From Haliotis cracherodii (taxonomy: Eukaryota), in NCBI RefSeq assembly GCF_022045235.1, contig NW_027266266.1, positions 25,606,001 through 25,670,000 on the forward strand: a DNA stretch of 64,000 nucleotides, in the 5' to 3' direction. Position 1 is the stretch's first letter. Each line of letters opens with the position of its first letter. The position numbers and the translations under genes are program-made. The notes beneath the pieces were generated by a model that worked only from the letters and a program-made list of their open reading frames with translations, made no database searches and was not told where the DNA came from. This document shows positions 4,197-62,900 of the stretch, one piece after another.

Positions 4197-4231
<35 letters not shown>

Positions 4232-25300: not shown

Positions 25301-28300
25301 CACAGCATGACAAGTTGATTTGGATCTATTGGTGAAGGATGCTGTCATTGTTACTTTTGGCAGTCCAGTGATAGCCTTAACACCATCTGAATATTTCCAT
25401 GGTAAACACACACTGTCAAAACAGGGCCTCACAAACACTTGATACACCTTGCCATGATCTAGGACCATATTCGTGAAGTCTGCATAGTCAGTGCCACTAT
25501 CAACAATAATAGAAGATAGGGTTTTATAACATTGTGTCCGGTTTTCGCAGTGCATTCTTTCTTTGAGGGCAGCTTCAAAATGAGTTGTTAGCGCTTTCCA
25601 AGGACCAGCATATGTCCAGTAAGATGACACTTTGTTCTTCGACAACGTGTAATCAGTGTCCAGAGAACACATGTGAATAGTTGCGTTGTTGGTGTCAACA
25701 GCAGAGTCAGTAATGTAGAACCGGGGATAATGTGTCAAAGGTACAAATTCATATGTAGCCAAGTCTTGCATTTTTCCATCATTGCTAGGTTTGGACTTAA
25801 AGAGAACATCATCCGACTTTATTTTTCCACTTAAGGATTGTTGAAACTTAACAATGTATCTCTGACCAATACCGAGAGAGGAAGATGCTTTGTATGCCCT
25901 CGTAATATTGATGTCTAAAGTTGTATCTGTGTCTAGGTCCAATCCAAAGGTGTTGTAAATGTTAATATCACATGCTACTCCATCAAATACCTTTAGGAGA
26001 AATTGTTCATCAGATGGTTGATCTATAATAATGAAACCATCAGATGATGCATATGATGTACCACTTGAACTGGTTGCTCTTACCGTAGCATAATAGTTCA
26101 CACGTGGTTTGAGACCTGGTGAGGTGATACAAACAAAAGTGTTGTTTACAACTCTGAATGGACTAATGTCACTTCCATTTACAACAGCTCCCAACGCCAC
26201 TTCAAATTGGACCATTCCGTGATGATGGAAGCCATTCCACTTAACACAGGACTTGTTTTGTGTGGAATGAAATTCAACATCATCCTTACTGTCCTCATGC
26301 AATGGGTCAATGTCATACACGATCCCATGTCCTGGTGGGAATCTGGATGGCACTGTAATCTTCTCTGTGTTGACGATAGTGAAATGGCCAGCAGAATTGT
26401 ACACATACAGTTCAAAGAGAAATGGTTTGTTAAGCTCCGAGTCCATCTCTTGCAGTCGTGTGAGTGGATATCTGATGCAACCAGCATGACCCTGAATCTG
26501 ACACGCTTTTGTGATGTGCTTTGAAGTTTGGAGAATAGGTGTGACATGAACCCCATCATGCACTGAAACGAAATTAAAAGTATTGGTTCAAATAAAAGCG
26601 AGAAATCCCTTTCCATAATCACAAGAAAACTAAGAGACTAACAATTGATATTCTGTAGATGGGGGAGGATGGGGGAGGAGTTCTTGTATAGAGGCTAGAT
26701 ATATGTTTAGCTACAGCTGCAAAACCAGTTTTTAAATAAAACAAAACTTTTACATTTTCTCAATGAATTGCCACTTTTGCAACAATGTATTTTTTGTGGC
26801 AGGCAACTTCTTTTTGTTCAAGTGTCTGAAGCCTTTTTTTATTTTAAAAGTATTGTCTGGAACAATTTATTAGTTCAATAAAATACCATAACTTGTGTCA
26901 TTGGGGATGCCTTCGTCTTGCCTTCATGTCATATCTCATATCTATAAGGAGCTCCAGTATTTCACATATTGTTTTATCAGTACCTTCGCAAATGACATTT
27001 GCTTTCATTTTGACACATTGTTCTGAACCTTTAAGATATAACTGCATCTAACGTTATTGGTTTATCCAAGTTATACTTTCATACCATAAACGTTTCTAAG
27101 ATTAATTAACTCAAACATAGACACTCTGTTTATAATAGGATGAGCTAATTATTTTGTAAGGTCTTACCGATTCTGTACAAAACAGTAAATTGGGAATCCT
27201 GTTGCTCTGAATCTGTGAAGGTCATATTGTTCCATGTTATAATGACAAAATCACCGCTTGATTTTGGTGATAAAATCTCAGTAACAGCAGGAGGTGTATT
27301 GTCAATCATCACTGGTCCAAACGTTACAACTGAAGTCAATCCAGCCTTATTAACTGCCTTTAGAAAAATGTAGAAGATGTTCTTCCCAGAAAAGCCAGCA
27401 TGATTAAGCTTAAAAGAGTGACGTCCTTTACTCGACGCATAGTCCAGAATATCTGGGTCATGAACTGCTGTCTTGTCAGATCCAAATCCTACTGAGAAAT
27501 CTCGCATTTGGCTTTCATTCTCTGAGCAGTTCCATTGAAGGTCTATCTTGTCAGATGGAAGAAAGATCACAGAGTCTTCAAAAGATGGAAGATATCTGCA
27601 GAGGCTATCGGCCATTTCTGTATCATTCAAGATTCCATTAACCTTAGGAAAGATGTAAGCAATCGTTGATGTGGACCCTGCTTTGCATCTCTGTGAACAT
27701 TCACTTGTCTTCTGTAACAGATTTAGTGTTAGATTTCTTTTGACAAGCCAGAGATCCCCATTGAGGCGTACAACATGTTCAGTTGATGTTTGTGCAGATC
27801 TCAATACGACATTGTAAAATGATGGTGGTGAAATATCCCTGATAATCCCATCAGAACAGGCGGCTTTTGAAGGAGTTAGGGCGGCATTGAAAGCTACAAC
27901 AGTTGCATAATATTTGCTCGTCTCTTCACGAATTGTAAACTGCGCAGTATTTATGCTTCCTGGAATATTGATCACATCTGTAATGTTCTTCATATCGTCA
28001 AGTGTCAGACACTTGATGTCCAGACCGACCAGGTAGTTGTTGATACCACTCTCATGGTCAATAAACCCTGCCCAGTTGACCAACACAGTATCCTCACTTG
28101 TGTAGTCCACATCAGGACCGTCCACCCCTCCTTCTTTAACGGTCCCTGCTTCAGGTGGAGAGGTGTCCACAAGAATGTCCAGGTGGTCGATGGTCCGCAG
28201 ATCTGCTTCATTTGTTGACACGACCGTGAAGTAGAAGGCCTGGTTGTGTTGAGCATGATTGGTCTTGTTTGCCACAAGCCCATTCAATTTCACAAAGTAG

Positions 28301-31300
28301 TTGTGAAACTGACACTCTCCAATAGAGGGACAGTAGCAGCTGGAATTCGATGGACATGGCTGCAAATAGAATATAAGTATAAAATAAATAAATATATAAA
28401 TAAATACTATACAATACAATATAATATTGTTATTCCGTTATAGATTAATGGATCAATCAGGAATATGCATTGTAAGAAATAAACTGTTCTAACATTTTGA
28501 ACTACATATAGACCATATAACATTGAAGGAAATATAATCAGTTTTTAAACTAAACATCATGAACTGCTCTTATATTTTTAAAACCTATACCGCATAATCA
28601 CCTTTCCATTGAGTTTTTCTACTGGCAGCACTCCATGGCCAAGGTCTTCGGATGAGTCTTTGGTGCCAAGATACCACTCTACGAATTGGACACCACTGTG
28701 AGGGTCTATGACATCAAACTGGAGCACCATGGTAGAAAGGTCGAGACTGTCGTGAACATACACCTGCTTGTTTCCATCTTTCACGAGCCACATGTTTGAG
28801 ACATCAGGACCAGTCGAGTCAATATAAACTCGTACCGATTCCTCTACAGAGCTGTTAACAATGTCTTTAATCTTTATGGAAATATTATAAGATTGACCAT
28901 CAAACAGCTTAGGAGAGATGCAAAATGATTGTTTGGTAAAATTAGGAACCAATGCCCAGTGTGATTTAGAGCCATGATCCACAGAAACAAAATACTTTGC
29001 CTCAATGATGCCGTCAACGTTAGGAGTCCCAGAAATAGGAAGGGTTCCAGAAGTTTGGTCATATTCCGGGCTCACTTCTACCTGGGGACGAACTGGATCC
29101 AAAGGGTTATTGGCCCTCATTCCATCATTATAGTAACGACCTTTCCAGTCAACGCATACGGGTCCAAGGTTTGTCTGCCATTTGTAGCTCGATTTCTGGG
29201 TTGCTGACACAACCTGAAGAGGTTTTGTAGGCATTATCATCAGTTTGGAGGAGTTGTCGTACAACACCAATCGCCGCACATTTTGTATGTTTCCAGCCGT
29301 GTCATGTACCTCCAGAATGACTGCATACAGCCCATTTGCGTTTGGCAGGTGAATAGGTATGTCTAGCTGAAACTTGTTATCATATTTTAAATCAAAACCT
29401 TTCAGTGGCGTGTGTATTACGTCGATCACATTTCCTTTGTGTTCAGTTTTCAGAACTGTTATTTTAGTGTACTTCAAACCCGATGCTGCATCAGTCTTTC
29501 CTCCTTTCGGAACCGGGTCTGACCAGCCAGAGGTTTTCACATGGAATACACCTACAATATTTGAATCACATTCTATCATGTATAAAGATATCAGTCTTTA
29601 GTATGATTGTGTGCCCGTCAATTAAACAACTTTAGATATATACCGAAGCCATAAACATGAAAAATAAATAATGGTAAACATTATTACACAAATATTTCTT
29701 ACATACCAGTTCGTGTAATGCGGGTTGATAGTTCAAGTGGTTGTGACATACAGTGTCCTGTGTTGAGTTTGGAGCAGTGTACAGGTTGTCCAATATCATA
29801 CCGGAAACACAGCTGTTTGGTGGAACTCTGATGACTGTAGATCTGGGTTCCTACAGGATGTCCGTCAAAGTCCTGATACTTGAAAAATCCTCCACCAGTA
29901 GTAGAAAATTGGACGCATAGTCTGGATAATCAAAATTGCTTAATTTAACATCACCATACATAATGTCAATTGTGGAGAGTCATAAACTAAAGTAAAAGTT
30001 CAAATAGGGAATCTTTGGAGTCGCAGTTACATGCCAAAGAAGGGTAAAGTAGAGCAAGTTTCTGATATATATATATCATGTTCGTATGTGTTGTTCAACG
30101 TTTAACGCCGCACTCAGCAATATTCAGCTATATGACGGCGGTCTGTAAATAATCGAGTCTGGACCAGACAATCAAGTGATTGACATCATAAGCATCGATC
30201 CACGTAATTTGGATACGATAACATGCAGCAACAAAATCAGCGAGCCTGATCACCCGATGTCTTACGACAAGAATAGTCGCCTTTTACGGCAAACATGGGT
30301 TGCTGAAGACGAGTCTACATAAATATAAGCAACAACTTCTTTTCCATTATCGTAAGAAATGTATCCCTTATCCATTGTGCGATTCTGACTATAGCATGAG
30401 CATGTGCTTTTCAATCACTATAAGATAGTGATGACACCAAGTGTTCGCGAATAGATGGCACCCGATACAAACAACGTCAAGTCAAATGGTCAACAGAAAC
30501 AAACACGGCTACATATGGCCGTCAAAAGCCAAACTAAGGAATTACATAAGACGTTTTTTTCTCTCTGCCTTGTCAAATAAATAATAAATCCCATAAATCT
30601 TTTTAAAAGAATATTTCCTCAGTTGACATAATGGCCTTATCTGTGGCATTATTTATTGAAGGCAGTGTAAAAAATTACCTCTCTCCATCAAGCATGTCTG
30701 TTGATATTGGCTGAGTTCTTGAACATGCCAGATTGCTAGATGGTGAAGTGTCACTCAGAGCTTTCGAACAGTCACTTCCCCCATGCAATGATACTGTAGA
30801 CAGACTACTCTCTGCTCCTGAATTGGAAAGCACCAAGTGAAATAACAGCGAAATTTAATCGTACACTACTATGACGGATATGCATGTTTCAGATCATTTG
30901 CATTCAGCAATAAGAGCTGATATCTTAATCGATGTCCCGATTGGCTGTCTCGAATATGGTAAATGGAATAAATAGTCACCATATGTATAATATTACAAAT
31001 GTAGTACCATTTATGAGAATCTTCTTCAATTTTGCCCATGACACAACTATTCCATAGCCTTGATCGTAGACATAGTTCGGGGGTTTTGTGATGTCAATGT
31101 TGTCGAACTTTGAGAAAAACAGATAGTAGACAGAGTTGGGCTTCAAGTTGACATAAGTATCTGTTTCATGTGAACACCTGGTGTTGGACCCGTGTGTGGA
31201 GTTTCTTATGCTGCGGTGTTCATCGGTCATTCCAATGTGGCAGGATAGAAGTTCGGGTTTGTAAGTAACTGTGAATTTAAAAAGCACAGTCATAAACATG

Positions 31301-38049: not shown

Positions 38050-39473
38050 TACTGAACCAAATTAAAAACTTCACAATCCTAAAATTTTAACATTTTGGGG
38101 CCTTATTGTGTATTTAAACATCAATGGCCACGTATTGTCGTCAGATAATATCGATCAAAATCATGTGCACAGCTCTATAGTGGCAAAAGTGTTTTTTCAC
38201 GTGTTTTCAGCCAAACTTGTTAGCAGTCATTAACAAAAAAAGAAAAACACAAGAAAACAAAAGTCTTTACGGCCATTTGTCATGCCACGCCTTTCAAATG
38301 TGCAACGTGAACGTGCCATCGGCATGTTGCAGACGAGAACGTCCGTAGCTGAAGTCGCAAGGACGATGGGTTGTAGTCGACGGACGTTATGATTTACAGA
38401 CGCGTCTACAGCAAACGGGTACCACCGCTGATCGCCTTAGTCAGATTGTCTTACGTCACCTCCGTAACCGATTTTTGGCGGCTACATCAACCAGAAATGA
38501 ACTGTTTAGGGGTAGACTGAGTGCACAAACTGTTCGAAACCGTCTGAGAACTGCTCACCTTCAAGCACGACGGCCATACTGCGGGCCGATTCTGACTCAA
38601 TTACACAGACGTCAACGTCAATTGTGGGCACAGCGATACTTACGATGGACTCGTAGGAATTGGAATTAAGTCGCCTTCAGTGATGAATCCCGATTTAATC
38701 TTCGATTTGCTGATGGTAGGGCGAGGGTGTGGAGGCGCCGTAATGAACGTTACGCCCAGTGTTGTGTACAGGAAGTTGACAGATTTCGAGGCGGAAGTGT
38801 CATGGTGTGGGGTGCTTTCTCTGGCAATGCACGTTCCAGGCTTCTTGTCATCCATGGCAACCTCAACGCTGCTGCTTACCGCGACCAGGTACTGGCACCA
38901 GAACTTCTGCCTTTTATGCAGCACATGGACCCGATTTGATCTTCCAACACTACAATGCCAGACCCCACACAGAAGTTTTGACAAGGAATTTCTTTCAGAA
39001 TGCGGGAGTCAACGTCATGGACTGGCCGTCAAGGTCTCCCGACCTCAATCCCATCGAACACGTCTGGGATGCTCTTGGCAGAAGTCTGCACACTCTCCAG
39101 AACCAACCAGAGAATTTAGAAGATCTTGGCACCATTTTGCAGCAACAATGGCGTCGTCTTCCCAATCATGTGTTCACAAGCATCATAAGGTCCATACGGA
39201 GGCGTTGGTTGGCAGTTTTCAACGCACATGGTGGCCATACACGCTACTGAACTTGTGTGCCATCAGATTCTCGTGCTTGGGACTTATGATTTAAACTGTT
39301 GATGTTATTACCGAATACCGTAGGTGCTTGGAACAAATTATGGTTACCACCGTTAATTAAAATCCTTCTTTGGACATTAATAATTAAAAATTACCTTCTC
39401 TGATACATTTGTCCGTTGTATATCATACATGGGATTACTTTTAAATAAGTGAAGTTCTTAATTTGACTCAGTA
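38050..39473 (+). mobile_element. Full-length degenerate Tc1/mariner (DD34E) DNA transposon
   Basis: 25-bp TIRs TACTGAACCAAATTAAAAACTTCAC (38050) and GTGAAGTTCTTAATTTGACTCAGTA (to 39473) flanked by TA. Transposase remnants MPRLSNVQRERAIGML (38282), FSDESRF, GGSVMVWG, HYNARPH, WPSRSPDLNPIEHVW, with stops and frameshifts. Confidence 0.93.
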
Positions 39474-39742: not shown

Positions 39743-41257
39743 TACTCTTCAAAAAAAGAAACTTGACACTGACTTTCAAAATGTAATATAATGCGACTGT
39801 TTCAAAATAGGACGCAAAAACCATAATTGAAACACTTTTTGAAGATCAATGTATACAATGTTCAAAACATTAATCGTGTCACCTAGACACACACACGTAC
39901 ACAATACAGTTAATGTCACAGGGGTACAGAAAATGGCAGTATCGGTTGTGCCCACCACGTGCATCAATCACCGCTTGACACCGACGACCCATAGATGAAA
40001 TTAATCGTCAATAACACGCTGTTGGATGTGCTGCCATTCACGCTGAAGTGCATCAAGAAGCGTCGGATGTGTTTGTGGCGGTGGATTCCTTCTGCGAACG
40101 CGTCGATCCAACTCGTCCCACAGACGCTCAATCGGGGACAAATCTGATGACCAGACTGGCCAAGGTAATGTCAAGATGTTGTTGTGCTGTAAGAAGTCCT
40201 CACAAACACGTGCAATATGCGGTCGAGCGTAGTCCTGCTGAAACTGTCCGCCATGAACGTTGACGTGAGGAAGAACGTAAGGCTGTAGGATCAAGTCTCT
40301 GTAACGCGCACCTGTCAATGCACCTGCCACATGCACGAGAGGCGTCCTACCACCGTGATGAATTCCGGCCCATACCATGACACTCCCGCCGCCAAATGGG
40401 ACAACCTGCTGCACACAGTTGGGGGCGTAACGTTCACCCCGACGTATGTAGACACGTGGGCGCCCATCAGCATGTGTGAGTAGGAAACGGGACTCGTCAG
40501 TAAACAGTACATTTCTCCACTTTGGACGTGCCCATCTAACCCTCTGTTGGCACCAAAGCAGACGGTCCGCCAGATGACGTGGGGTCAATGCATGACGTCG
40601 AACAGGTCCTCGTGCAAAAAGTCCAGCCTCCCTCAGTCTGTTGCGTACCGTTTGATTTGATATTCTGCGTACCCCAGGGATCTGTGTGGTTGTAGACGTG
40701 GCTGTGGCAGTGCAGACTCGGAGGTGTCGTAGCCGGATGTATCGATCTTGTGCTTGGGTTGTCACCCGTGGTCTTCCTGACCTTGGTCTGTCGTCAACTC
40801 TGTTGGTGTTGTTCTATCGGGTCCACAGTGCGGAGATTGTCTGTCTGGATACGCCAAAGTGCCAGGCCACTTCTTGCTGAGTTGCTCCAGCTTGTAATCT
40901 CCCAATGGCGTTTTTCCGTTGAGCTGCATTCAGTCTTGGCATGCTGTCACCGCCTCTACTGCCGTTAGAAGTACTGTATGAACAGCCGTTGATGAGGTGT
41001 GTTTTTTATACCCATTCAGCAGGGGGGCTTGCATGCCTAAATGCAGGATCCTGTGCTGTGCGTTTTTTACAGGCGGTTGCGTTTGGATGAAGCTGTAAAA
41101 TTGATCCCCAAACTCTACGTTTATGTGCTTTGCATGTGTTTTCGCGAATTATAGACACATCATATTTCTGTTTGACTTATTTGGTTCTCATTTAATGTAA
41201 TTATTTTAGATATTTGGCAAAAAGGGGTTTTACATCTATGTCAAGTTTCTTTTTTTT
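39743..41257 (-). mobile_element. Near full-length degenerate Tc1/mariner transposon
   Basis: TIR core AAAAAAAGAAACTTGACA near both ends (outer part missing at 41257). Transposase MPRLNAAQRKNAIGRL (ATG 40942), FTDESRF, GGGSVMVWAGI, QQDYARPH, WSSDLSPIERLW; frameshifted. Confidence 0.92.
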
Positions 41258-41540: not shown

Positions 41541-44500
41541 TCACATCTTCTTTATCCAGTCCAGCTCCCACTCCTTCATGGCCTTCTTCACCTTATTCCT
41601 GCCCCTGCTCCTTTCCAGACTCCTTTTCCTCCTGTGATGGGGGATGTCATGGATGCTGAGCCCAGCCACAGCAAACCGACTCCACTTGGGGCAGGCCGTC
41701 CCCGACCAGTACTCCAGCTTCCTCTGCAGGGCGGACATGACGTTGTCCTGGTCCACCGTGTCAGTCAGATGGAACTCCACCTCAGTCACGTCCCTGTTGT
41801 AGATCATCAGGATCTAGAGCAAGATGACAATGTACAACAACGTTCGTTTGGGGATTCTAATATTTGTTGTATGTACATGTTTTTCTGTTGTGAAAGATGA
41901 GGGATGACAATGGTTCAATTTTTGTAATATGCCTGTCAGTGTCAAATGACAAGGACGAGTTCGTTTTAAAGGATCAGGGAGCCTTGGATATGATATGGCA
42001 TTGATGGAATGTCAATATTATGTTGAAAGGAACCCCGATTATGAATAATACAATGGAAATCAAATGACAGCTATTTTAAAAATAAATCGGATTTTGTCAT
42101 TCCTAAACAATCAACATTCCAGCGGATTATTTCCCTCGAATAATTGATTCATTGAGAAGCATTTCTCATGCATACCTTTATAACATCCCTCATACTGGCC
42201 ATGTCTGCCTCAGACTCTATATACACCCTCACAACGCCAGACACCTGTCTTGCAAACTCTTGTTCAACCAGAGATACTAGCGGCGAGGGGTTGTCATCGC
42301 CGCTGTACAACAACTCCTCTCTGCTCTGTTGTGGGTCAGGCTGGTACTTGGAGTTCATCAGAGGCACTGCAAGCCCACATATAGTCCTAATGTACGATGT
42401 GGTATGGGTGCTACGGTGAGTTTCATAAAATAGATGTTACACAGAATAGGAAGCCAATCCTTTAACAATAGATCACTTTGGACAAAATGTAAATTATTTT
42501 CGTTACAGAGTTATCACGTTTGTAACGAACATTTTATCATCAACAGAACATGTTTAATCAATATCAATTCATAGTAGTGTGGAGCAAAGGTCTTGACAAG
42601 ATTTCAGTGTCAAGCTGACATTTTGACACACAATACCAGACATCTTTGAAATTATTAAATTCTTAGAAATAAGCAACTAATTTCAATCACTTACTTATTA
42701 GAGAATATAGCTGCGTGTTCTCCACACATACATTGCCGTCATGACACGCCAGAGAGTGAACACTTGATTCAGCGTTGTCGATGTTGAAGAAGGCAGCCTT
42801 GTCGACTACATCTTTGAACTGGTTTTTGGCAAGCGTCAGAAAAGTGTGAACCATGCCCACGCACCCACTCACTTTCTTATTCCATGTTGTTCCTACGAAT
42901 TAGACATGTAACGCAAACTGAATTATTGCTTTAAAGATTTCGGACACGGAAGGAGACCAGGTAGCATGATTGAAAGCAGTACTTGTATCAGTAGTAGAAG
43001 AGATTGGAACGAGCAACAACAAAACAATGCACTAGTTGTCAAGTTGTGTAAAAGAACCTTGGGCGTTACAGTAGCCGTGCTTTACTTTTACATGTGAGAT
43101 ACCTTTCCCAGGACATCCTCCACAGTTGTCCAGAACACACTTCTGGAGATCCGCCTCTATCGAACTCCTGGTCATTGTGGTCCCTGCAACTTTCATCAGG
43201 TCATCTCGAAGTGTGTTGGCCTGTTGTTGTCTGTGTTCCCTGGTCTCGCGACAGAAGGGGCTCTCCCGGTCGTGGAAACAGAACCTGATGTATGTATTAA
43301 CAGGACAAAGTAGCATAGACCAGTGTTTGTCATGACGATATGACATTTGGAAGTAGGTTCGCCAGAATTGTGCAAAGCTCAGACTTGAGTAGATCACTTC
43401 ACCACATATAAGCCATTAGTTTCACCACATGTAAACTTTAGTTTCACATTTAGTAAGTTGCAAGATATGAAAAAGAAACCTCATGAATTAAACAATACTA
43501 TTATTTAAAAAAATACAACTGATGGAACTTATGCCAAGTTCCAAACGTACCCAATTGAATATGTGTTGAAGGAGTAGTATGCGAACTGTTCACCAAGCCG
43601 CGGTGTTTTACATGTCCTCCTTTGGTTCAACGGATATATTGCTGGCCCCCCTACAGAAAGAAACAATGTTTATGATACATACATAAACGTGTATCCGCTC
43701 CGATTTTACAAGAGTGAATATTACCATTGTTATTTACATTGTGTCATTGACTCTAAAGCAGTTTCATTTAGGTGTTATTTTAATGTCCATTTCTCGAGTG
43801 TTTAGAATATCGATATAAAGGTTGTCATAACCTAGTAGGAATGTCATATACTCAAATGTTATGAAAACATTATGTACCTTTTCTGAGTTCGTTCATCGTT
43901 TGATGCATGATGTCAAAGAAAGCCTTATTTCCGGCATCCCACACATCAGCTATGTCACGAACATCACCGGAAGTCATCGGTCGAATGTCGAGGTATAATT
44001 TATCACTATGACAACCAATGCCAAGGCCACGTGACTGCAGTCGAAGCGTTGGAGAACAGCTTCTCAGAAACGCTTGTCCAATACTTACAAGGACCTCTGT
44101 TGATTGGTCTGCGATTGGCGTGACATACATAGCTTGCCCTGTTTCGAATCTGAACTTTTCTTGAGGATGTCTATGGTCAACGTCACGCATGTTGATGGAA
44201 TGGGACCTGGGTGGTACAATCATGTGTGGAAACAACGTATGACATTGACATGAAAAATATCTCTTCATCTAATATCCAGTAACATATCCCACATGTCACA
44301 GTTAGTGGTGATACAAATTCTTTCAAAATGTGCACAGCTTATCTTGTCAATCGATAAAGTGTAAGATTTTTCATCTACAAGAGCAAACTGCTGCTACGTA
44401 TCCAACAGAAGATTATATGGATATCCGTTATAAAAAAATTAAGCCTTCAATATCTATACATCTTTGTCCATATACACACCTGTAAGCAGAATTTTGAATG

Positions 44501-45690
44501 ACTCTGATTTCTTTTCCAAGATCATTTACCACCATCTCTAGACAGTCAACCAGGGATGTATCGAGTCTGAAGAACCTCCTCTCTGAGTGCTTGAAGTCAG
44601 ATATCTTAAAGTGTTGCGAGAGTGCTACGTCCTTATTGAAACCATCAAACAGTAAAGACTTTCTAGACTCGTCCTTCAATTCAGTGGGGTAGGCATAGTC
44701 TTCGTCCTTGACCCCTACAGCTAACAAAGTAGTAGCCTGGAACGGCACAACAGTTGCCCTGTAGCCGTCTTGCAGCTTGACATAGACGTCAATGGATGAA
44801 GACTTGGAAGTGTCTACGAAGTCAAACCCTGCACAGTTTGCCATAGAGCGGAGCTCGGATGTGGGAGGTGTTGTGCCTGATTGTGTAGAAATCTTGAGCT
44901 TCCTGTTGATTTGGTATATACACACAATGAATCATTGGTCTCTCATGGGGTAACATATTTATAAACCTCTATTGCTGTTTGATTGTTGTTTTTTGAAAAA
45001 AATAATATCATATTCATAGTTACATATGATTGATAAAAAATGGTTATAATAATACATAAAATTAATAAATTCGAATGTTAATATATATGCATGAGTTTGG
45101 GTATTCTGTCAAACATGTGTTGTTGTTTGTTGTTTAACGCCGCACTCTGCAATTTTCCAGCTATATCACGGCGGTCTGTAAATAAAGGAGTCTGGGCCAG
45201 ACAATCCAGTGGTGGGCAACAACGTTTTAGACAGCAATATAGAACGTATATGTATATGTGTAACTTTACCTCCCATTCATTTCAAGCATGATGCCATCAG
45301 ATGTTCCTTGATGAACTGCAAGGGATGGCTTTGACACACTTAATTTTGTACCTGTAGTGTGATAATAATACAGATATACTTGGATTAACGTCTTAGGAAC
45401 GATGGAATAGTCAACACAAAGTTGTTAAAGAGTTTGTCTGTCAGCCAAAGACATTGGTTCGATTCCCGAGAAGAAGATCCGGCGTTCGATTCCCGGCCGC
45501 ATGATACCAATAGACATTAAAATATGGTACTTGTTGTTACCATGTCTGGCGCTCGGCATTGAGGGGCTCAAACAAAGACTGTTCGGCTCGGAGTCAGTAT
45601 ACTGTGTCTGAGTGGGGTATTCATGTTACACTGCAGCATGGTATCTCAATGAGCCAGCACAATAAATCGGCATCAGTCCGGACTAATACA

Positions 45691-45749
<59 letters not shown>

Positions 45750-48700
45750 GCGTGCGCACGTGTGTCACGTCGCTATATAAGTGCAATAATCTTGGACGCG
45801 ACGTTAAACCCCATTTCACCTCACCTTGACTACCCTTACAATGATACTGCGATAAGCAACCGTTCACACTGATACTAATTCAATGAAACATAAATAAATG
45901 AGGTACACTTCCAAGAATCAATCTCAGTAAAGGAACATGACATCCCAAACAATCAGAGATTCACTGGAGTAACGATTATGCTTCAAATGCATATTATTTG
46001 ACCTGTGTTTTTGCAATTCGTTCGAACGGATTCAAAAGATAAATATTTTTATTTTCAAGAGAACATTTTTGCTGAGGATTTTAACTAAAAGTATATGTAT
46101 ATTGATATACATTGAAATGTGTAATGGATCGGGAAACAAAGAATAAAAGATTACCCTCATCTCATACTAGTATGAAACAATAATACCTGAATGATGATGG
46201 TGAACAATAGCGGCCATTCGTCGTAGGCGTATCGCCATTCTTGGGGTCATGACCCTCGTCTGACACCAATCCCAGGGTTCCGTACTGTCAGACCACTTGC
46301 ACGTGCTTTTGCATCTCCTGGTCGACTGATAGCATGTTGCCGATGATGATCCCTCGGGCTTGAATATGACGTCTTCATACGGATACTGAATTAGTCTGGG
46401 GGAAATGATATTCATCTTTTAAAGATGGCAAAATTTATATGGCTTCGATGCTATATCAACACGGATACTATCAACACATACCTATATTGTAAATCATGTT
46501 CTCTCAATGGGGGGTTGATGACGTGGGAAAGCACTTGATCCTGATGATGGTTCGCTCCTTGCTTGCAAACAGTAGAACCTGACTTAAGCCCTGAAAAGAG
46601 CAGTCCCCCGTGTGTGCTTTATATGTGTTATAGTGAAGAAATGACACTTTACCTGCAAATACGAAATCAATTGAATTTTGTGATACATTCTTCCTAAAGA
46701 ATAAAAAATTAAGACAGCTCTAGTTTCGATCTCATGTTTTTTAGACACCAGTGGCATTATGAATTCAATATGGTTGGTTGGTTGGTTTGCTGTTTTACGC
46801 CGCACTCAGTAATATTCCAGCTATATGACGGCGGTCTGTGAATAATCGAGTCTGGACCAGACAATCCTGTGATTGACATCACGAGCATCGATCCACGCAA
46901 TTGGGATTGATGACATGCATCAACCAAGTCAGCGATCCTGACCACCCGATTCCGTTAGTCGCCTCTTACGGCAAGCATAGTCGCCTCTTACGGCAAGCAT
47001 AGTCGCCTTTTACGGCAAGCATGGGATGCTGAAGACCATTTCTACCCCCGATCTTCACGGGTTTATTCAATAAGGATATGCACAGTTACACACATAACGA
47101 CAGCGTGCTGGACTACTCATGCCAAATTTAGCTGACACGCCATGATATACTGAAATACGGTTTAAAGTTTCTTAAAGACGTCATACACTCATTCATAGGT
47201 GTGCCAACTCATGAAATAACAGCAACATCCGTTGACTCGCTGTATTGACCTATCCTGATTTATCTGAATCTCGTTAAATACATGAAATGCTTCTTACGAT
47301 CCCACAAATTACCACAATTTCTCTCTATATATATACCTCCTTCAAGCCTTAATAATCTTTGACTTTCTTACCAGTTTCGTTTATTGTTCTTAGAAACGAC
47401 CCTTTCTCCAAACTGTCTCCAGAAGGTCCGATGGCCGATCGCTTTGATCTTTTTTGAGGCGTTGAACCATCATGAACACAGAATTCCACATGATCGGAAG
47501 TGGCATCAAAGAAAGGGAACCCAGCGCAAGCACCTAGTTCCGCCAATCTCTTCAACACTGGGGCTGACTTTTCCAACTGCAGAGGTTTAGATTTACTCGG
47601 GTTTTCAGTTGTCAGCGCCACCTGTAAAGCTCTTCCGGAATAGTGAAGTGAGGTAGCGCCATGACTTCCGTGAGGAAGATCCGATGTTGGTTCATCCCAT
47701 GCTTCAAGCACCACCAGTTTCCCTGTAGTATATGCAAATTGTAATTATTTTTATGATAAATACATATCGTATATGCACAATTGGTATGCTATCTTACCGT
47801 GTCCTCTTTTCTCACACATACATAATACTTATACTTTTTTATATTTGTATTTCCGATATTATTATCAATAAATTACATCCACTTTATGAAACTCTCATAG
47901 CGACCTATTTATTGTCAACCATTATCTGAATGACCTTAAATTTTAAAGGCAAATCACCATGTAGCCATGCCATATATGTCTTATTTTAAGTATTTTATTA
48001 TAAGACGCTAGTCCCCATTGTTCTTAACTTCTAGTGACCTCATCCTTTTGTTTTTACCGGGCCTTCATTTTGTTTAAAAGCCTCGAAGGCTTTCCAGCAG
48101 AACGAACCTGCAACCTCGCATATTATGTTTAATATTATAACCCACTGTTTTCAATCGGAGCCATCGGCCAGGTGATGAGAAGGGGTTATCTTATATGTGA
48201 CTGACTTCAGTTGTCTGCATGCTACAGGTGGCCTTTCCTCGCCTACTGTCTTCGAATTTGTTTTATACTACGACTACGGTATTGTTTTACCACTAGGCTT
48301 TTCGATGTTTTCTTAATCTTTCTGGTATTTCTTGCATTTCGACGATTTTTAAGTTAGTTAAAACACTCATCCCCAGTTCTGGTTGCACGAATTCCCGAAT
48401 TCGATTTTTTTCATTTTCAACCAAAACGTCTTCATCACATGATTGTATTGCACATTTACTGTCGGCCAACATCATACAGCAAACATGTATTCAACCCAAA
48501 GTCATCGACTAAATATTTTCATTTTCAATCTCACACCTACTCCTTGAATTTACAGCTTATCATCATCAACTTCGCAAACGTCACGAACTCAATGGTGCAG
48601 CGCGTCCTTACAACGAATTCTTACGGTTTGGCCATTCCTGTGCGGCAAACTGGCCGAGGGTAGTCAACGCTGCTGCTGCTGCTGAAGTCATCAATCTGTC

Positions 48701-51700
48701 TGCACAAGCATCAGTCTCGCTGTCGCCATTATCACTCCACACACATTTATGACAGGGCCGCTTTGACGTTCCACACCAGGTGGCACTGTCCTTTTCTTCT
48801 GATCGGAATAGGATGAAATCGCCTCCAATCAAGGTTAATCTGAAAGCGAAATGTCGTCATTAATTATCTCAAATCGCCACGTGAGGCCGATATGACCTCA
48901 GCGATACTGAGACAGTAGATCGAAGCCTATATGGCAATGTGAACACATACTTTGTAATCATATTAAACGTTAGATTATATTATTAATTGTTTTTCGTAAA
49001 ATAGTATTATTTCATTTTGATACCACACTTATCATCCAAGTTACAATATATGTTACGCTGAAGCTACTGCCAGTAGTCAAAAGCAAAATGTAAATAAAAA
49101 AAATAAAAAAATCCATAACCATGGGAATCTCCGTTGTCCGAATCAGACCATATAAGCATGTGCTTACTTCATGAAACAAAGCCTTCTCGTGACCTTACTT
49201 CTTAAAATTGCTATCTCCTCTAACGATCGCGTGGCCTGCTGCACCACAAATGTTTTCCATGGTCTTCCCATGAACATCAGCGACTGGAGGACCACAATTT
49301 GCGGAACAGACAGTGGAGAGAGTGTCGTTAACCAATGACTTGCGAATGACGGACGTGTCCACTAAGCCCAGATCCCTAAGAGGAATAAGAAATATGACTA
49401 TGTCAAATCATTAAGACAATAGTGTTTGATCATGCTTAATTGCATAGGATCATAGATTAATACTATGATTAATCATATAACTATCGGGTGTCCTTGGCAT
49501 GTTAATAACAATCTGTTGTGCAATGGGTATGATTATTAATGCATGTCAAGGGCAAGCAATAACAAAACGAAAGTGAAAAGTAATTAATTTACCATATGGT
49601 TTTATGGAAAGCTTTAGCCACAAAATCTGACTTGTCGAAGGTAAATATCCCGTCAACTGTGAGCGTGGCTGTTTCACAGCGACTGTATTCATCCTCGGTA
49701 GTTCGGGCGTACAGGACAGGCCTAAAACTTGCAACTTCCGGGGGCGTGAACACAAGGGAAACATCATGCTGAGACCACTGAACAGAAGCTTGTAAAGTGA
49801 CCTGGCAGACAAGAGGATAAATATTTTTAAAAAAATCAAATATATTCATGTAAAATAATGATTAGTATCGTTATTACTGTAAGGTGAGGAGACGTGAGAT
49901 GGTGTTTAGCGTCGCTTTCAAGATTATTTCACTTCTATGCCGACGTGCATGTATCCGTTTTTGTGTGACTGCTTGTGCTAGCCACACTGGACATGTACTA
50001 GTGCCGTATTGCTAACCCAAGGCGATACCATGCCGCAGATAACTTGGCTACCCCATTCAGACATATTTGACTGACAGTCATCTTAATGCCGAATGGCAGG
50101 CAGTGTAACAAGTACCATCTGTTAACGTCTTTTGATATACCGCGGCCAGGGATCGAACCCCCGACCTTAAGCTCTCCTATTATTGAAAGGACAAAGCCAA
50201 ATAGATGATACAAGAGTTGATATTGACACCTACGATCAGCGATTTCACGTAAGGTGAGGTAAAATTGGGTTTTACGTCGCTTCCAAGATTATCGCACTTA
50301 TATAGCGACGTGCATGCACGTGTGTGTGTGTGGCTGCTTGGACTAGTCCGGACTGATGCCGATTTATAGTGCTAGCCCACTGAGATACCATGCCGCAGTT
50401 TAACATGAATACCCAACTCAGACACATTATACTGACTCCGAGCCGACAAGTCCCTGTTTAGGACGATCTACCTCTTGACCACGGAGGCGGTCGGTTTCAC
50501 GTAAACATTAATTTCTGTCACGCTGACACCCATATTGACGATCAATATAATCATCACAACAGTATATGGTCTCACCTCTTGATAAAGGGACATCGAAAAG
50601 TTGTACTTGTTTGTGGAATGCCCGCTGAATGAATGGCCTGGTAATGACCAGCCAGTTGTAGTCAACTCCGTTTTCGGAATCTGCCCTGATGCTTCAGATG
50701 AGGCTGAATTCAAATATGATTATATATTCAAGTGTTTCTTATTCCAAAGATAGATACAGTACAGTAGTTGAAACTGGTAAATATATATAAAGCGGGCATA
50801 AAGATATCACTTTAGCATTACTCAATCACGGTAGACCAATACAAGTACATGGTAACTATTACTTAAAATCTTCATTACTATTTCTCTAAAAAAAATTCTG
50901 CACATGAGCTTCAGCAATTATGATACGATAATGACAATTAATACTCCATACTTGCAGTATAATTTCCTTGTACATGATATTTTCCACTGAAGTTGACTGG
51001 TCCATCAGATGTTGCGTTGACGTCTAAATATACAGTTTTGTGATATGAGATAACTAGTTGTATGGCTGGTAGTTTCTCATTCACCGTTGCAACTGGAATA
51101 GTCCGTAATATCGTTGTGGGAGTCTTGTCTAAGATAAGTTTTTCCTTGACGCCGACGGCTTTTCTGAAGTCCACGTCTAAGGCAACGTTGTAAATTGTAC
51201 CGACGTCGCCCTGAAACGTTTCTGAAGGTGTTACCGAAAGCACCGCTTTGTGGATTGTCTAATATCTTTTTAATATCGCAAGTGTTAGTTTTAGGTTTGT
51301 CCTTCGAGTTTGGTCAAGAATTACTGAAAAGCGATACATTCAAAAAGTTTTAGAACTATTTGAAAAATTGCATACAACCTGCATAAGGAATTTCTTGACA
51401 ATAGCTGTCTTGTTTCGTCTCTCAATGTCAAGTTCCCTGTAACAGAAGATGATTTGTTTTAAATGTTTTGTCAGTTTGAATGAAACATTTGGAGCAACGG
51501 TTGTGCCATTTTTTATTTTTTTTTATTTTCTGAATAGTTTGATTGTGTACATCTGAAATGAAAGATATGATATACATACTTCCCAATGTTCGATGTTTCA
51601 ATATTGTGTTCTGATATATATTGCATAATAATACTTACATTGTATGCCCAACGTGTCTCACTTCAAAACAATCCTTGCAGGTGAGGCGAAAGTCAACATC

Positions 51701-52999
51701 TCGAGGAATGGCACTAGTTTTACCTTTGCTGATCTTTTCGACCTTGACCTCCTTGTTACCCTGCTCCTTGTATACATTGTATGTATAGATCGAGTGATTT
51801 GTCTTGGCATCAAAGTTAAAGTTGATGGACTCGTCGCCATCGGTGGCATGGAAGTTGATTTTGTCCAAAACGTTAGAGAGAAGATTGGACACGAATCTTT
51901 TCTGACGATGACCATGTTTATTGGTTAAGTGGGGATATTTGAGAAACACCTGTGCTTCCTGAAGTAGATCTATGGCGCTGAAAATAGATAAACGGAAACA
52001 ATAAATGACAATCGACAGAAATCGCAACAATTACATACACTATATGACATTTGTGCAAGGTGTTGGTTACCTGACGTCGATGCCTTCAACCTTGACCTTT
52101 GTATGACTGACGATATTTACGCGTTTTATTTTCCTCACAATGGCGACGCGTTTGAACTCTAATCCATGCCTTTGTCGGACATTGGTGCTCATCAAATACC
52201 ATCCTGTTTGCCACCCGGAAGCAACCGAAGTGTCCCGAAGATTCACGATTATCTGCCCTTTGCTGTTTTCGGCAACCTAAAATGAACAGTAAGAAAATAA
52301 GGATCAGTGTTATAAGGCTCATTTAATGTTGCCCGCAGTCATTGAACAATGGGTATACTATCTTATGGCTTCACGACTGGGAAACAACTATTATTACACG
52401 CATTGATTTACGCAAAAATGAATGCATGAACATATAACCCTTGAAGATACGGGTTAGAATTAATCGTCAGCAACACATGCTTCTCAGGAGATGCGACTAA
52501 CGGGATGGGGTGGTTAATCTCGCTGAAGTGGTTCATGCATGCCATCGTATCCAATTTACATAGATCTGTGCTCATGATATCAATCACTGGATTGTCTGAT
52601 CAAACTCGAGTGTTTACACACCGCTGTCATAGAGCTGGAATATTGCTGAGCGAGGCGTTAAACAGCAAACACACAAAGAAATCATCAGCATATAAACAGT
52701 TAATATTTATGTTACGACGTTGAACAATGTGAAACATAAGAAGGTTTCAGGAGCAAAAAAATCATTAATGTGTTCATTATTTTTTGTACGCAATTTATAT
52801 TCACTGAGACTGTACATACACTGACGTCAGGCAGGACATCGAGATTGACAATGTGTGACAAGAGACCTCTGGAGTTCAGTTCCCATTCAGCATCGTCATC
52901 AACGTCTTTACCTCGACTTTGGTGTTTAAATCGACGCCAGCCATTGATAGTGCGAATACAAAATACGCAGAAAACAGCCCATAACACAACAATCTTCAT
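41541..52999 (-). CDS. Gene C: about 1420-aa secreted multidomain protein with two Hedgehog N-terminal-like (Hedge) domains and a degenerate peptidase M15A-like domain; no Hint domain (not a hedgehog ortholog)
   Basis: Exons (minus): 52999-52820, 52276-52071, 51977-51639, 51436-51379, 51258-50952, 50703-50576, 49801-49593, 49375-49199, 48839-48625, 47722-47372, 46590-46482, 46395-46187, 45351-45270, 44902-44480, 44206-43878, 43650-43551, 43284-43103, 42892-42695, 42366-42176, 41813-41541; sum 4266 nt, in frame. Signal peptide MKIVVLWAVFCVFCIRTING. Motifs FILFRSEE..ADRLMT..EWPNRKLVVLEAWDE..SLHYSGRA..LAELGACAGF..HVEFCV match Hedgehog-N. The acceptor at 51258 is weak and uncertain. Confidence 0.82.
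43978..44620 (-). other. Peptidase M15A-like (LAS/DD-peptidase fold) domain of gene C, catalytically degenerate
   Basis: LSQHFKISDF..RLDTSLVDCLE..LGKEIRV..SAYRSHSIN..FRFETGQAMYV..GLGIGC..LYLDIRP parallels bacterial M15A LSxHFxxxEF..IDxxLVxxLExLR..GxPIxIxSGYR..N..SxHxxGxAxD..GxGxY..FVHxDxR. Confidence 0.75.
44776..46570 (-). other. Hedge domain 2 of gene C (more degenerate)
   Basis: YPYEDVIFKPE..QTRVMTPRMAIRLRRMA..KLSV..MNGRKLKIST..ELRSMANCAGFDFVD..IDVYVK; same motif order as Hedge domain 1. Confidence 0.75.
45450..45826 (+). mobile_element. SINE family 4 with expanded (CA)n(CG)n microsatellite
   Basis: Homology to 34028-34362; (CA)n then (CG)n at about 45693-45760. Confidence 0.8.
46772..47063 (-). 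mobile_element. SINE-like repeat, family 2, with internal 22-bp triplication
   Basis: Homology to 613-853; AGTCGCCT(C/T)TTACGGCAAGCAT repeated three times at about 46957-47022. Confidence 0.85.
47475..49260 (-). other. Hedge domain 1 of gene C (Hedgehog N-terminal signalling-domain fold), split over 3 exons
   Basis: ENICGAAGHAIVRGDSNFKKL / DFILFRSEE / ADRLMT / QEWPNRKLVVLEAWDE / SLHYSGRALQV / LKRLAELGACAGF / HVEFCV align by eye with Hh EKTLGASG..RFKEL / DIIFKDEE / ADRLMT / QWPGVKLRVTEGWDE / SLHYEGRAVDI / LARLAVEAGF / HIHCSV. Confidence 0.9.
49880..50460 (-). mobile_element. Two adjacent SINE family 4 copies in gene C intron
   Basis: Copies at about 49880-50175 (with B box GGGATCGAACCC) and about 50250-50460 (5'-truncated). 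Confidence 0.75.
52437..52672 (+). mobile_element. SINE-like repeat, family 2 (diverged)
   Basis: Homology to 613-853. Confidence 0.75.
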
Positions 53000-59929: not shown

Positions 59930-62900
59930 CTAAGCATGGCGTTCTTTGTCCAAGGCAGGCAGTTTCTTGGCGCTGACATGATCAACGCAAACAGTTTCAG
60001 GCTGACAGAATTTGTAAGAAACCCTGGTATTCAGAACCACTTGAACAACTCCTGCAGTCTTGTCCTTGACCTTGACCTTGTACATCAGGGTACCTTTGAA
60101 CTCTGACAGGAAGTGCATGGTGATTTTGGAGACCTTCTTCTGTGGAATTTCTCTGATTTCAGCGAATTTGGTGCTCCAAGTCGAATCTGGTAACGCCGCT
60201 GGTTTAGCATCAAAGAAATGAAGTGATGTATTTAGGGGCATCAGCTCGAATACTATGTCGTCCGCCGCATTCCAGGAAGCTGCGACAACGTGGCCAAGAT
60301 CAACAACTGCTGTCTGGTACGGCATTGGTCTTGTAATGTCGAGTTCCACATGGTCATTATTCTCTACACGGAACATATCACTGTCTGGGGGAAGGTAGTA
60401 GAGGATAGGCGGGTCGTTCACTGATGTCACAATGATGGTGAGTATATATTTCTGCGAATTTGGCGTGAACCCTTTCACACCAACTTCCACAAGCTCAACC
60501 TCAATATGATCAACTCCACTAAAGTGGGGCCCTGGTGTATATTGCAGGGCGCCTGTAGCAACTAGGTGAGCAGTGCCATGTGTAAGTTTGGTATCACCCA
60601 GATGGAATGTAAATTTATCGCCTTCAGCATCTTTTGCCTTGATCTGGTGGTTAAGCGTTTGACCCTCCTGGGTGTAAATGACCTCATCCTCTAAAAAGGG
60701 TGGGGTGTTCACTGGATTATTTTTCATTGCGACCATAACCAATTTTGGCGACAGGTCACCGCGGTTGCTTTGGGTAAGAGTCATTTTCCTTAAAAGATCT
60801 GGACATATCTGAAATAGAACAATACACCATTGTATAAATACGTATAAATGATAAGAAAACATAACTGGAGTTAAATCGTGTTAACTTTGGCCATATAACC
60901 CTAATAAACTGACCGGCAAATATAAACCAATCATTAATGGTGGCTAAGATGGAAACGAACAAGAAATAATTGTTCGGTGGTTGATGTTTTTCATATGGGT
61001 ATCACAGGTAATAGTACATGCATCATGTCAATGAGTACCTCACAACAGAACATGGAACATGGGGGTGGCAGTTTAACAGCACACAGTAATAAACAGAATG
61101 AAGCAGATATTGTCTTGATCGGGTTAAGTTGTGTCACAGATACCAGACATTCTCAGTGGCGAATATGACCACCAGGAGCGCAAAGTACGCTCAACTACAC
61201 CCCCTCATCGATGGCGTCAGGCGCCCGATGACGTCATTGGGAGCCCCTTGCCATTTGTTCCTCAGTACGATCTCCAGCTGTTCTGTGCTGGGAGAGGACG
61301 CCTCCTGATCGGACGTTCCAGATAATCCCACTAGAGTTCAAAGGGGTTAAAGTCTGGTGATCGAGCTGGCCATGTAGGAAGGACGACGTTGTTCGCCGCC
61401 AAGAGATTCTGGACGACCCTTGCTGTGAGCGGCGTAACGCTGTCGTGCTATAAGAATGTTCCCTGTTATATGAAATGTTAAAAACAAAGGGTTGTCTGGT
61501 CTTGCCACAAAATCCTCCTCAAACCATCATCCTATCGTCACCATGGATGCTTACGCTCTACGACAATAAACCCATGCATAACTATCATTATGTATTAATA
61601 TAAGCAGAATCTGCTTTCATCAGTATAAAGCACCTTCTTTAAGCGTTGTACGACTTTGACAGTCTTTCACGTTGATGTCAAGCTCGTTCAATGGAAGGGG
61701 TGGTATATTTAAACGCAGAAGCGTCGAACCACAGACCGTCGACTGATGCGGCGTCCAATCGCTGTTGTTGCCGTTTCAGTTGCTTTGACGAACCTATTAC
61801 GCAAATGCAAAGTGCGCAAGTACCGGTAATCCCGTGGCTTTGTCATGCGTGGTCTTCATGATCTTGCCCTGTTCTGTGTTCTGCCAGTCTGTCATTAACG
61901 TTCTAACAGTCTGACGATGGTTGTACATGTACAGTTCATGTTTCTGGCAATATACATGGGGTTTGTTGGCCTCTCCTTTCTTTTGCCCGGCAGTTTAATC
62001 CGTAAATTACGTATAATGTTAATATGACATAGCTTCATAGGTGTCTGAAACAGGGAAGGCCGCTGAAACCCTGATGTTACAGATGGCAACATACCAGGGT
62101 TGCAATGACTTTATCAGAGCTTGTGCATAATACCACTTTATGAAATCAAAGCTTAAATTTGCGAAATATTTCTTAATGGTCAAACTTCACATAGTGTCAC
62201 CTTCGTTCAACTTGTTAACACTCGGACATAATGTCAGTTATCAAAATCGGACAGCCCTCTTCTAACGCTTCATATACACATAAGGTAGGTATCAATATCA
62301 ATGTTGATGCACAACCTGTCACATGTACTTCGGTTTCTATAGAAAGTCGCCAACAACGGGAAAGGATATATACTTACAGGTACGATGTGCTGGTCATCAC
62401 TCGTTACAAGTGTCTCAGTTTTGTTACAAATATCCGGCAAATCGTGCCATGCCCCATCTGTGGAACAGGCAAAAAGCAGGATGTAGAGGAACTGAATAAA
62501 TCAACAGTTTTTAGGATATTTCCAAGACTCTGTAGCCAAATTGATGAAGTACTTCCAAGACGGACATTCCTTATTTTCGATGCTATACGTCACTCCCCAA
62601 CAACAGGTGCTGGGACCAGGTTACTTGTGTCAAGAACATACATTGTCATGGTTGTTATATTATGTTCTCAAAATGTGTGATTGAGTTGAGTGGCCGAAGT
62701 AAGAACGTTTCACGTTATAAGAAATGGACTTACGGCTGTCATTATAAAACAGTTTGATGCTTGTATTGTTGTCGTGAACTGATTTCACTTTAATGTCAAC
62801 ATGCATTCCTTTGAGGTCTTGAGGTTTAACACTGATAGATATAGGTTGGCCGAGTTTTTCCACCAACCTGTAACACAATGAATGAATAATGAACACCTTA

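Follow-up and report, generated by a model that had tools for sequence, protein, structure and literature searches.

The gene described here lies in a stretch of 64,000 nucleotides of the abalone Haliotis cracherodii (NCBI RefSeq assembly GCF_022045235.1, contig NW_027266266.1, positions 25,606,001 to 25,670,000 of the forward strand), called the window in the following, with all positions counted from its first nucleotide. It occupies positions 41541..52999 on the minus strand and encodes a protein of 1405 amino acids (aa) with two Hedge domains, each carrying a four-cysteine insert in the place of the calcium-binding loop of Hedgehog. By its sequence, the protein belongs to the family previously named Hedglets. 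GT-AG joints in contigs from public runs define 20 coding exons, from 52999 down to 41541, whose joined frame is open from ATG to stop; of the 19 introns, 17 are supported by joints and one more by a loose end, the last being deduced. The contigs are guessed to be RNA, none of the listed runs being on record as such. Haliotis rufescens LOC124134979 aligns to the protein without gaps at 97.1% identity, and single exons used as queries gave weak or zero database matches. For exon 9, a donor at 48611 was discarded, as it breaks the frame; the donor at 48624 restores the frame and matches the contigs.

Insert 1 (C541-x6-C548-x2-C551-x12-C564; 48704..48775, minus strand) and insert 2 (C765-x6-C772-x3-C776-x11-C788; 46263..46334, minus strand) lie in the first and second Hedge domain, respectively. 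A preliminary description of the window had quoted the two peptides, and both read as given on the minus strand, from 48775 to 48704 and from 46334 to 46263. The family profile (a hidden Markov model, HMM) aligns Sonic hedgehog up to 'IIFKDEE' and resumes at 'ADRLMT', with the insert in between. The span from F to R is 36 residues for insert 1 and 35 for insert 2, compared with 9 in bacterial Hh and in the Hedgehog of the same genome, so that a 9-residue calcium loop is exchanged for 35–36 residues, i.e., 26–27 extra. According to the part of PMC4102407 covered here, the calcium-binding loop of mouse Shh comprises residues 88–94, and the ligands are E90, E91, D96, E127, D130 and D132. The earlier placement of the insert within this loop is thus borne out, its flanks being the 'I.F..EE' and 'ADRLMT' motifs of Sonic hedgehog.

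Both inserts lie inside exons (48625-48839 for insert 1, 46187-46395 for insert 2). For the first of these exons, contigs show coverage and a joint to its upstream neighbor in 4/4 runs from four studies, and a joint to the downstream exon in 3/4. The second is joined downstream in 4/4 runs and upstream in 3/4 of those listed, the fourth having a 5c row. None of the joints listed interrupts one of the inserts; a further 302 and 33 weaker joints lie outside this listing. Because both exons are joined on both sides, the possibility that the inserts are spliced out of the mRNA, raised in the preliminary description as a ground for refutation, does not apply. We searched the six frames of the window with a relaxed form of the motif and obtained two occurrences, which are the two inserts; in 20,000 shuffles of the protein, the motif occurred once in 16 and twice in none. 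The insert is therefore a genuine part of the spliced transcript and lies well beyond what chance would give.

Comparison of 86 distinct inserts, exon fragments included, yielded the consensus C-x6-C-x2/3-C-x7..19-C-x2-R. The spacing between the first and second cysteine (C1 and C2) is six in 81/86 inserts, not five as first proposed. It is two (72/86) or three (14/86) between C2 and C3 and ranges from 7 to 19 between C3 and C4, with 12 in 53 inserts. A tryptophan precedes C1 in 71/86. 'WSD', initially taken as part of the motif, occurs in only seven of the 86, all from abalones, and the search pattern originally suggested matched 0/160 proteins, the abalone protein included.

The 86 homologous loops come from eight animal phyla (name look-ups cover 30 of 150 family representatives). 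The layout with two Hedge domains (~1400 aa) was found in gastropods, bivalves and cephalopods, and the layout with one (~950 aa) in molluscs, annelids, a nemertean, echinoderms, hemichordates and amphioxus. Proteins of the brachiopod Lingula also bear the insert, as does a protein of the sponge Oscarella pearsei (P0033). The insert is missing from a choanoflagellate protein (P0047, Craspedida UC1) and from three unnamed relatives, all of which otherwise show the same series of domains. Four cysteines are present in 31 of 38 aligned family Hedge domains, two in three and none in four; further members have four in 18/18. Of the 30 Hedgehog and hedgling rows in Burglin's Additional file 10 (PMC2362128), 28 extend across the loop, and none of these 28 has the insert. 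The loop can therefore serve as the diagnostic signature that had been suggested for the family, but it is not special to this gene: it is found throughout animals, in a family already named. Among the matches listed for the representatives looked up, there were no named cnidarian, arthropod or vertebrate members. Named carriers are aquatic invertebrates, and many of them are suspension or microbe feeders.

The abalone genome itself (G000) has five two-Hedge loci, of which contig C3 holds three and C45 two, plus a one-Hedge locus on C12. In the four two-Hedge loci besides the present gene, both inserts could be read, as could the single insert of the C12 locus. Two of the C3 copies (C3:25355000-25364999 and C3:25516097-25526096) share 97.5% identity across 8.7 kb and lie ~130 and ~290 kb from the gene studied here; they represent either a recent duplication or an assembly duplicate.

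We calculated a tree from 140 columns, excluding the insert, with three Hh/BacHh sequences as outgroup; hedglings were left out. The family is set apart from Hh/BacHh with a bootstrap of 100. Hedge 1 (100), Hedge 2 (99), the one-Hedge domains (95) and the insert-less domains (100) each form a clade. The two-cysteine forms nest within the one-Hedge clade and are therefore secondary. The loop was probably gained early in animals, a reading that follows from the species tree, in which the choanoflagellate member is insert-less, and not from the gene tree.

Several members deviate in their domain content. The sponge protein P0033 additionally has trypsin and PLAT domains, and the choanoflagellate P0047 has a C2 and an M15_4/endolysin-like domain. 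Within alignment columns 901-1250, Hedge 2 is broken at one shared place by a ~300-aa unassigned insert in the oysters P0010 and P0011 (Saccostrea) and by a VWA domain in Tegillarca P0009; these interruptions are either real or gene-model fusions. Neither Pfam nor PHROGs nor PDB sequences backed a lysozyme identity considered for the oyster segment. Ten proteins (P0081, P0084, P0089, P0092, P0095, P0106, P0108, P0109, P0128 and P0145) have the CD38-like C-terminal domain described below while a Hedge domain was undetected. Such proteins reach 3124 aa, and some carry M23, fn3 or cadherin-like domains. The amphioxus Hedglets P0204 and P0216 (945–947 aa) are named 'SHH' and 'IHH' in their source, which is likely a misannotation.

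Hedge domain 1 (aa 483-681; exons 8-10; 47451..49308, minus strand) was identified by Pfam (HH_signal) and by its match to the structure 1vhh, and Hedge domain 2 (aa 716-886; exons 11-14; 44767..46567, minus strand) by Pfam scan and HMM alignment. An AlphaFold model of aa 477-1405, built with 79 sequences, reached a predicted local distance difference test score (pLDDT) of 88 and a predicted template modelling score (pTM) of 0.78. Insert 1 was modelled at a pLDDT of about 71–73 and insert 2 at 83–91. The modelled Hedge 1 superimposes on the Hedgehog N-terminal domain Hh-N (1vhh) with a Z-score of 19.3 and a root-mean-square deviation (rmsd) of 2.5 Å over 150 aligned residues. According to the sequence alignment, Hedge 1 retains five of the six calcium ligands and Hedge 2 one. 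The zinc triad of Hedge 1 reads H617/Q624/E670, with the catalytic E177 replaced by T665, and Hedge 2 is without zinc ligands. H141, D148 and H183 occur all together in 0/38 aligned family domains. The Hedge domain is thus likely non-catalytic, and the absence of a complete triad agrees with the prediction that Hedglets are incapable of mediating catalysis, made in the part of PMC8052667 covered.

The chain begins with a signal-peptide-like hydrophobic N-terminus (aa 1-20; 52940..52999, minus strand), recognized by a hydropathy test and not by a dedicated predictor. The same test found such an N-terminus in 38 of 41 full-length members and a later membrane-like stretch in none of them. The protein is likely secreted, and an oxidizing compartment is therefore likely for its cysteines. 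A beta-rich region follows (aa 21-480; 49314..52939, minus strand), for which a model of the H. asinina homologue has a pLDDT of 81; none of the folds compared with it reached E≤0.001 or Z≥8. Matches to beta-barrel or pore-forming proteins (Z≤5.7, probability ≤0.14) were dismissed as generic. Between the Hedge domains lies a furin-type site, RSKR (aa 682-685; 47439..47450, minus strand), and a site of this type is present at the same place in 7 of 13 two-Hedge proteins tested. In total, furin-type sites are predicted at aa 153 (RQKR), 682, 800 and 1376.

Downstream of Hedge 2, the model shows a third domain with a DD-peptidase fold (aa 897-1082; 43906..44736, minus strand). It resembles the M15A zinc DD-peptidase 1lbu (Z 10.4, rmsd 2.3, 119 aligned residues), with no Pfam match and, by eye, no counterpart to the His/Asp/His zinc motif, H-x6-D and H-x-H, of these enzymes. 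The C-terminal domain (aa 1133-1386; 41601..43262, minus strand) has the predicted fold of CD38 and the ADP-ribosyl cyclases. Foldseek matched it to CD38, BST-1 and the Aplysia cyclase (E 2e-4, probability 1.00), and structure comparison to the cyclases gave Z-scores of 10–11.5 and an rmsd of 3.8–5.1 for about 200 aligned residues, at 12–16% identity. This domain had no Pfam match, and a sequence search of the PDB did not reach CD38. Cys, Pro, Gly and Asn account for most of its invariant residues. An acidic residue is found at D1306 in 66 of 69 members and at E1243, the TLED-like place, in 47/69. At the register predicted for the catalytic Glu from the following strand, given the residue roles of CD38, none of the 69 members has an acidic residue, while 66/69 have Asp or Glu 5–10 residues earlier. 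When cyclase exons of the same genome were aligned to the C-terminal profile of the family, only one strand was anchored ('FA..a.G.V.V', weakly) and the catalytic helix failed to align. The ESM Atlas returned leads below 0.9 only, M15_3/Hh clusters and a cyclase cluster at 0.78. Conventional ADP-ribosyl cyclases are present elsewhere in this genome, on contig C67 (G000; L001-L008), with at least three gene copies or fragments, one locus being tandemly duplicated.

Both Hedge domains contain extra cysteines outside the inserts: C483, C487 and C503 (the last in 'ENIC'; 49246..49308, minus strand) and C656 of 'CAGF' (47526..47528, minus strand) in Hedge 1, and C716 of 'TVC' (46565..46567, minus strand) and C864 of 'CAGF' (44833..44835, minus strand) in Hedge 2. 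The C656 column is a cysteine in 37/38 family domains. We compared its presence with that of an upstream cysteine in 56 domains. Of the 48 domains with a cysteine 47–68 residues ahead of C1, 46 also have the CAGF cysteine, the other two being broken or truncated models; of the eight without such an upstream cysteine, six lack it. The CAGF cysteine is kept in 30 domains without the 'ENIC' cysteine. These counts were corrected by eye and, owing to kinship, the six absences may represent one or two events. The cysteines C503, C656, C716 and C864, noted earlier as extra pairs, do exist, and a pairing of TVC with CAGF fits, as predicted from the co-occurrence; ENIC and CAGF are probably not a pair. 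C864 likely pairs with C716, and C656 with C487 or C483. The extra cysteines appear to be older than the insert, because the choanoflagellate protein has them.

Within the loop, cysteines are lost in twos (P0037 and P0041), and the oyster-type members keep C4 together with one cysteine about 11–12 residues earlier and none of the others. Two-disulfide loops are therefore our inference, in which C4 would pair with C3 or C2, because the oyster-type members retain that pair alone. Two members were excluded from this consideration as they look like gene-model errors, Batillaria P0016 with a two-cysteine Hedge 1 and Gigantopelta P0012 with an insert-less Hedge 1. The disulfide bonding of the loop proposed at the outset is likely.

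Proteins of this family were named Hedglets in lophotrochozoans, echinoderms and amphioxus, with a distribution called enigmatic (Jagers & Roelink 2021, PMC8052667; preprint 10.1101/2019.12.17.880039; covered in part here, which applies to all statements on this source). The Hedglet XP_002607850.1 listed there (Suppl. Fig. 1) is our P0166, which falls in the cluster of P0025 and was found by the family profile at an E-value of 5e-94. By eye, three of the listed fragments match P0166, P0202 and P0210, and these three share a clade with both Hedge domains of the abalone protein. The range is the same, and catalytic residues are lost in both. By homology, loss of the catalytic residues and occurrence in a lophotrochozoan, the abalone gene is thus a Hedglet. 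The seven published fragments of ~105 aa are all of the one-Hedge form and begin after C3, so that C4 alone is visible; the word 'cysteine' has no occurrence in the text. Neither the insert nor the two-Hedge form, the M15A-like and CD38-like domains or the sponge and choanoflagellate members were found in those parts. The preliminary description had named, as another ground for refutation, that the insert be common to already described Hedge families. This is half the case, as the loop is shared by the named Hedglets, yet undescribed in the covered parts of that work and absent from Hedgehog, hedgling and BacHh.

The layout is likewise not described in the parts covered of PMC6027127, PMC9695228, PMC3538665 and PMC4054682, and a literature search with terms other than 'Hedglet' turned up no account of either the insert or a Hedge-CD38 fusion. 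We therefore provisionally regard as newly described the insert as a signature of animal Hedglets, the two-Hedge form, the M15A and CD38 folds, and the sponge and choanoflagellate members. The latter extend the Hedglet range. It was suggested that Hedglets derive from Hh (PMC8052667). The sponge and choanoflagellate members argue against such a descent, and the Hedglet family is likely older than Hedgehog itself. An Oscarella 'hh-like' Hedge expressed sequence tag (EST) had been left unassigned because it has no Hog and no VWA domain (Burglin 2008, PMC2362128, in the part covered). Compared by eye, it has the motifs 'EPTS' and 'CAGFD' and runs into an M15-like domain, as does O. pearsei P0033; it begins past the insert, so that the loop is invisible. 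This orphan EST looks like a Hedglet, an assignment likewise not found in the literature covered.

The other proteins with related domains differ in several respects. Hedgehog (Shh/Ihh/Dhh, PF01085) has the same Hedge fold, and Hedge 1 retains most of its calcium ligands. In Hedgehog, however, a Hog/Hint domain is present, whereas here the Hedge domain is internal and duplicated, has 26–27 extra residues, and has lost the zinc triad and E177. No Hog/Hint domain was found in the members run through Pfam scans, and modelling gives M15A and CD38 folds for the C-terminal part. The N-terminal Cys-Gly-Pro-Gly peptide that follows the signal peptide of Hedgehog has no counterpart, as Hedge 1 starts at aa 483. 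Hedgling of sponges, cnidarians and choanoflagellates is also a Hog-less Hedge protein with an incomplete peptidase motif, and Nematostella hedgling likewise has the 'VCG' cysteine. Its loop, however, is shorter, with one cysteine two positions past the C4 site, and is followed by VWA, cadherins and a membrane helix. Neither VWA nor cadherin was found in P0001-P0005 by Pfam scan, and Tegillarca P0009, with VWA inside Hedge 2, is exceptional. In cnidarian and sponge hedglings, a single cysteine occupies the D96 position of the shortened loop, which amounts to a distinct cysteine change within this loop. BacHh and the M15A DD-peptidases (1lbu) share the fold of all three DD-peptidase-like domains here, and BacHh is associated with cell-wall enzyme domains (P0077). 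BacHh has a short loop with zinc and calcium ligands intact, whereas the triads are broken in the abalone protein. The cyclases CD38, BST-1 and that of Aplysia (PF02267) differ from aa 1133-1386 in sequence and in that the domain is here fused to Hedge domains.

From these observations we moderately favor an explanation in which the four-cysteine loops are disulfide-tied knobs that give a likely non-catalytic Hedge domain a new binding surface, with bacterial cell-wall material a better candidate partner than a Hedgehog receptor. The chain would be secreted and then cut at furin-type sites into a piece with the beta region and Hedge 1 and a piece with Hedge 2 and the M15-like and CD38-like domains. 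Each loop would form a two-disulfide knob adjoining the calcium site. Hedgehog binds calcium-dependent partners through its calcium-side face, and the PDB titles among the Foldseek matches include complexes of Hedgehog with such partners. The knob may mask this surface, used by Hedgehog for co-receptors, and present a new one. As the ligand, the bacterial cell wall is our tentative preference, because the chain contains three dead DD-peptidase folds, a fold that acts on peptidoglycan in bacteria, and because relatives carry cell-wall enzymes (M15_4/endolysin-like in the choanoflagellate P0047, M23 in P0089).

Several points weigh against this explanation. The ligand is its weakest step: the cell-wall link comes from fold ancestry and two relatives, and the same argument also fits Hedgehog, a binder of animal proteoglycans. 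PHROGs gave no match for 13 of 15 members. Hedge 1 has five of the six calcium ligands, so that its calcium site may work as in Hedgehog. Both the cysteine pairing and the place of the loop with regard to calcium site and zinc cleft are deduced rather than read from coordinates, and insert 1 was modelled at a pLDDT of about 71 only. In the tree, the sponge sequence branches outside the insert-less clade with a bootstrap of 86, and the gene tree would allow a loss in choanoflagellates as well as a gain in animals. Finally, the guess that the contigs are RNA counts against it as well.

Alternatively, the disulfides of the loop could staple the Hedge domain to the neighboring M15-like or CD38-like domain as an internal clamp, without an outside partner. 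The pTM of the 929-residue model implies a fixed packing of the domains, insert 2 is better ordered than insert 1, and the length between C3 and C4 varies from 7 to 19, all of which would suit a clamp. Yet the same architecture exists loop-less in four members and half-looped in oysters, and the loop was retained in both copies after the Hedge duplication despite their different neighbors; we therefore consider it unlikely.

The loop might instead belong to a Hedgehog-like signal precursor from which convertases free Hedge 1, retuning its choice of receptor or co-receptor. Hedge 1 indeed has the Hedgehog fold and most of the calcium ligands, it lies between furin-type sites at aa 153 and 682, and the loop is one of the calcium-binding loops. 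We nevertheless regard this as improbable, as no member scanned has a Hog domain, the internal position of the domain leaves the N-terminal peptide that binds and regulates Patched1 without a counterpart, the freed piece would measure about 530 aa, sponge and choanoflagellate members occur where Hedgehog is absent, and this genome has a normal Hedgehog elsewhere. The altered receptor specificity first proposed presumes a Hedgehog-type ligand and finds little footing in a protein that has neither the Hog domain nor the Patched-binding peptide. A metal site, in which the four cysteines bind zinc or another metal in a ribbon-type arrangement and replace the lost ancestral zinc triad, would account for the C-x2-C core that is typical of metal sites and found in 72/86 inserts, but is very improbable given the secreted context, the dozens of further cysteines conserved along the chain, and the oyster-type pair about 11 residues apart, which suits a disulfide and not a four-thiolate site.

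A wider and improbable extension of the favored disulfide-knob explanation would make the Hedglets a secreted sensor-effector family of pre-animal origin. Their dead DD-peptidase folds would recognize bacterial cell wall and be coupled to an active CD38-type NAD-cleaving domain, and animals would have added the knob as a specificity or calcium-gating element. The family would then represent a third, Hedgehog-independent entry of the Hedge domain into animals, including the sponge EST.

The loop provides a simple diagnostic for a family whose members are filed as 'uncharacterized', as 'Hedgehog N-terminal domain protein' or, in amphioxus, even as 'SHH' and 'IHH', and misfiled Hedglets can inflate Hedgehog counts. 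[quoted passage not shown] As a natural insertion into the calcium loop that comes in four-, two- and zero-cysteine forms, the insert offers a ready series for probing that surface. A fusion of Hedge and a CD38-like fold would join two signaling toolkits, a combination not known before to our knowledge.

The surroundings of the gene contain several long, intron-poor frames that encode large fn3/Ig-like repeat proteins (1-9000 on the plus strand, 17250-29600 and 59933-60880 on the minus strand). The blocks 1-9000 and 17250-29600 look like inverted paralogues, and 59933-60880 has bacterial Ig/cadherin-like Pfam matches. Directly downstream of the gene lie remnants of Tc1/mariner-type transposases (38349-39250, plus strand; 40001-40813, minus strand), the latter with HTH_Tnp_Tc3_2 and DDE_3 Pfam matches. 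The introns of the gene hold high-copy interspersed repeats with very deep contig cover at 45123-45826, 46773-47037, 50250-50460 and 52250-52700.

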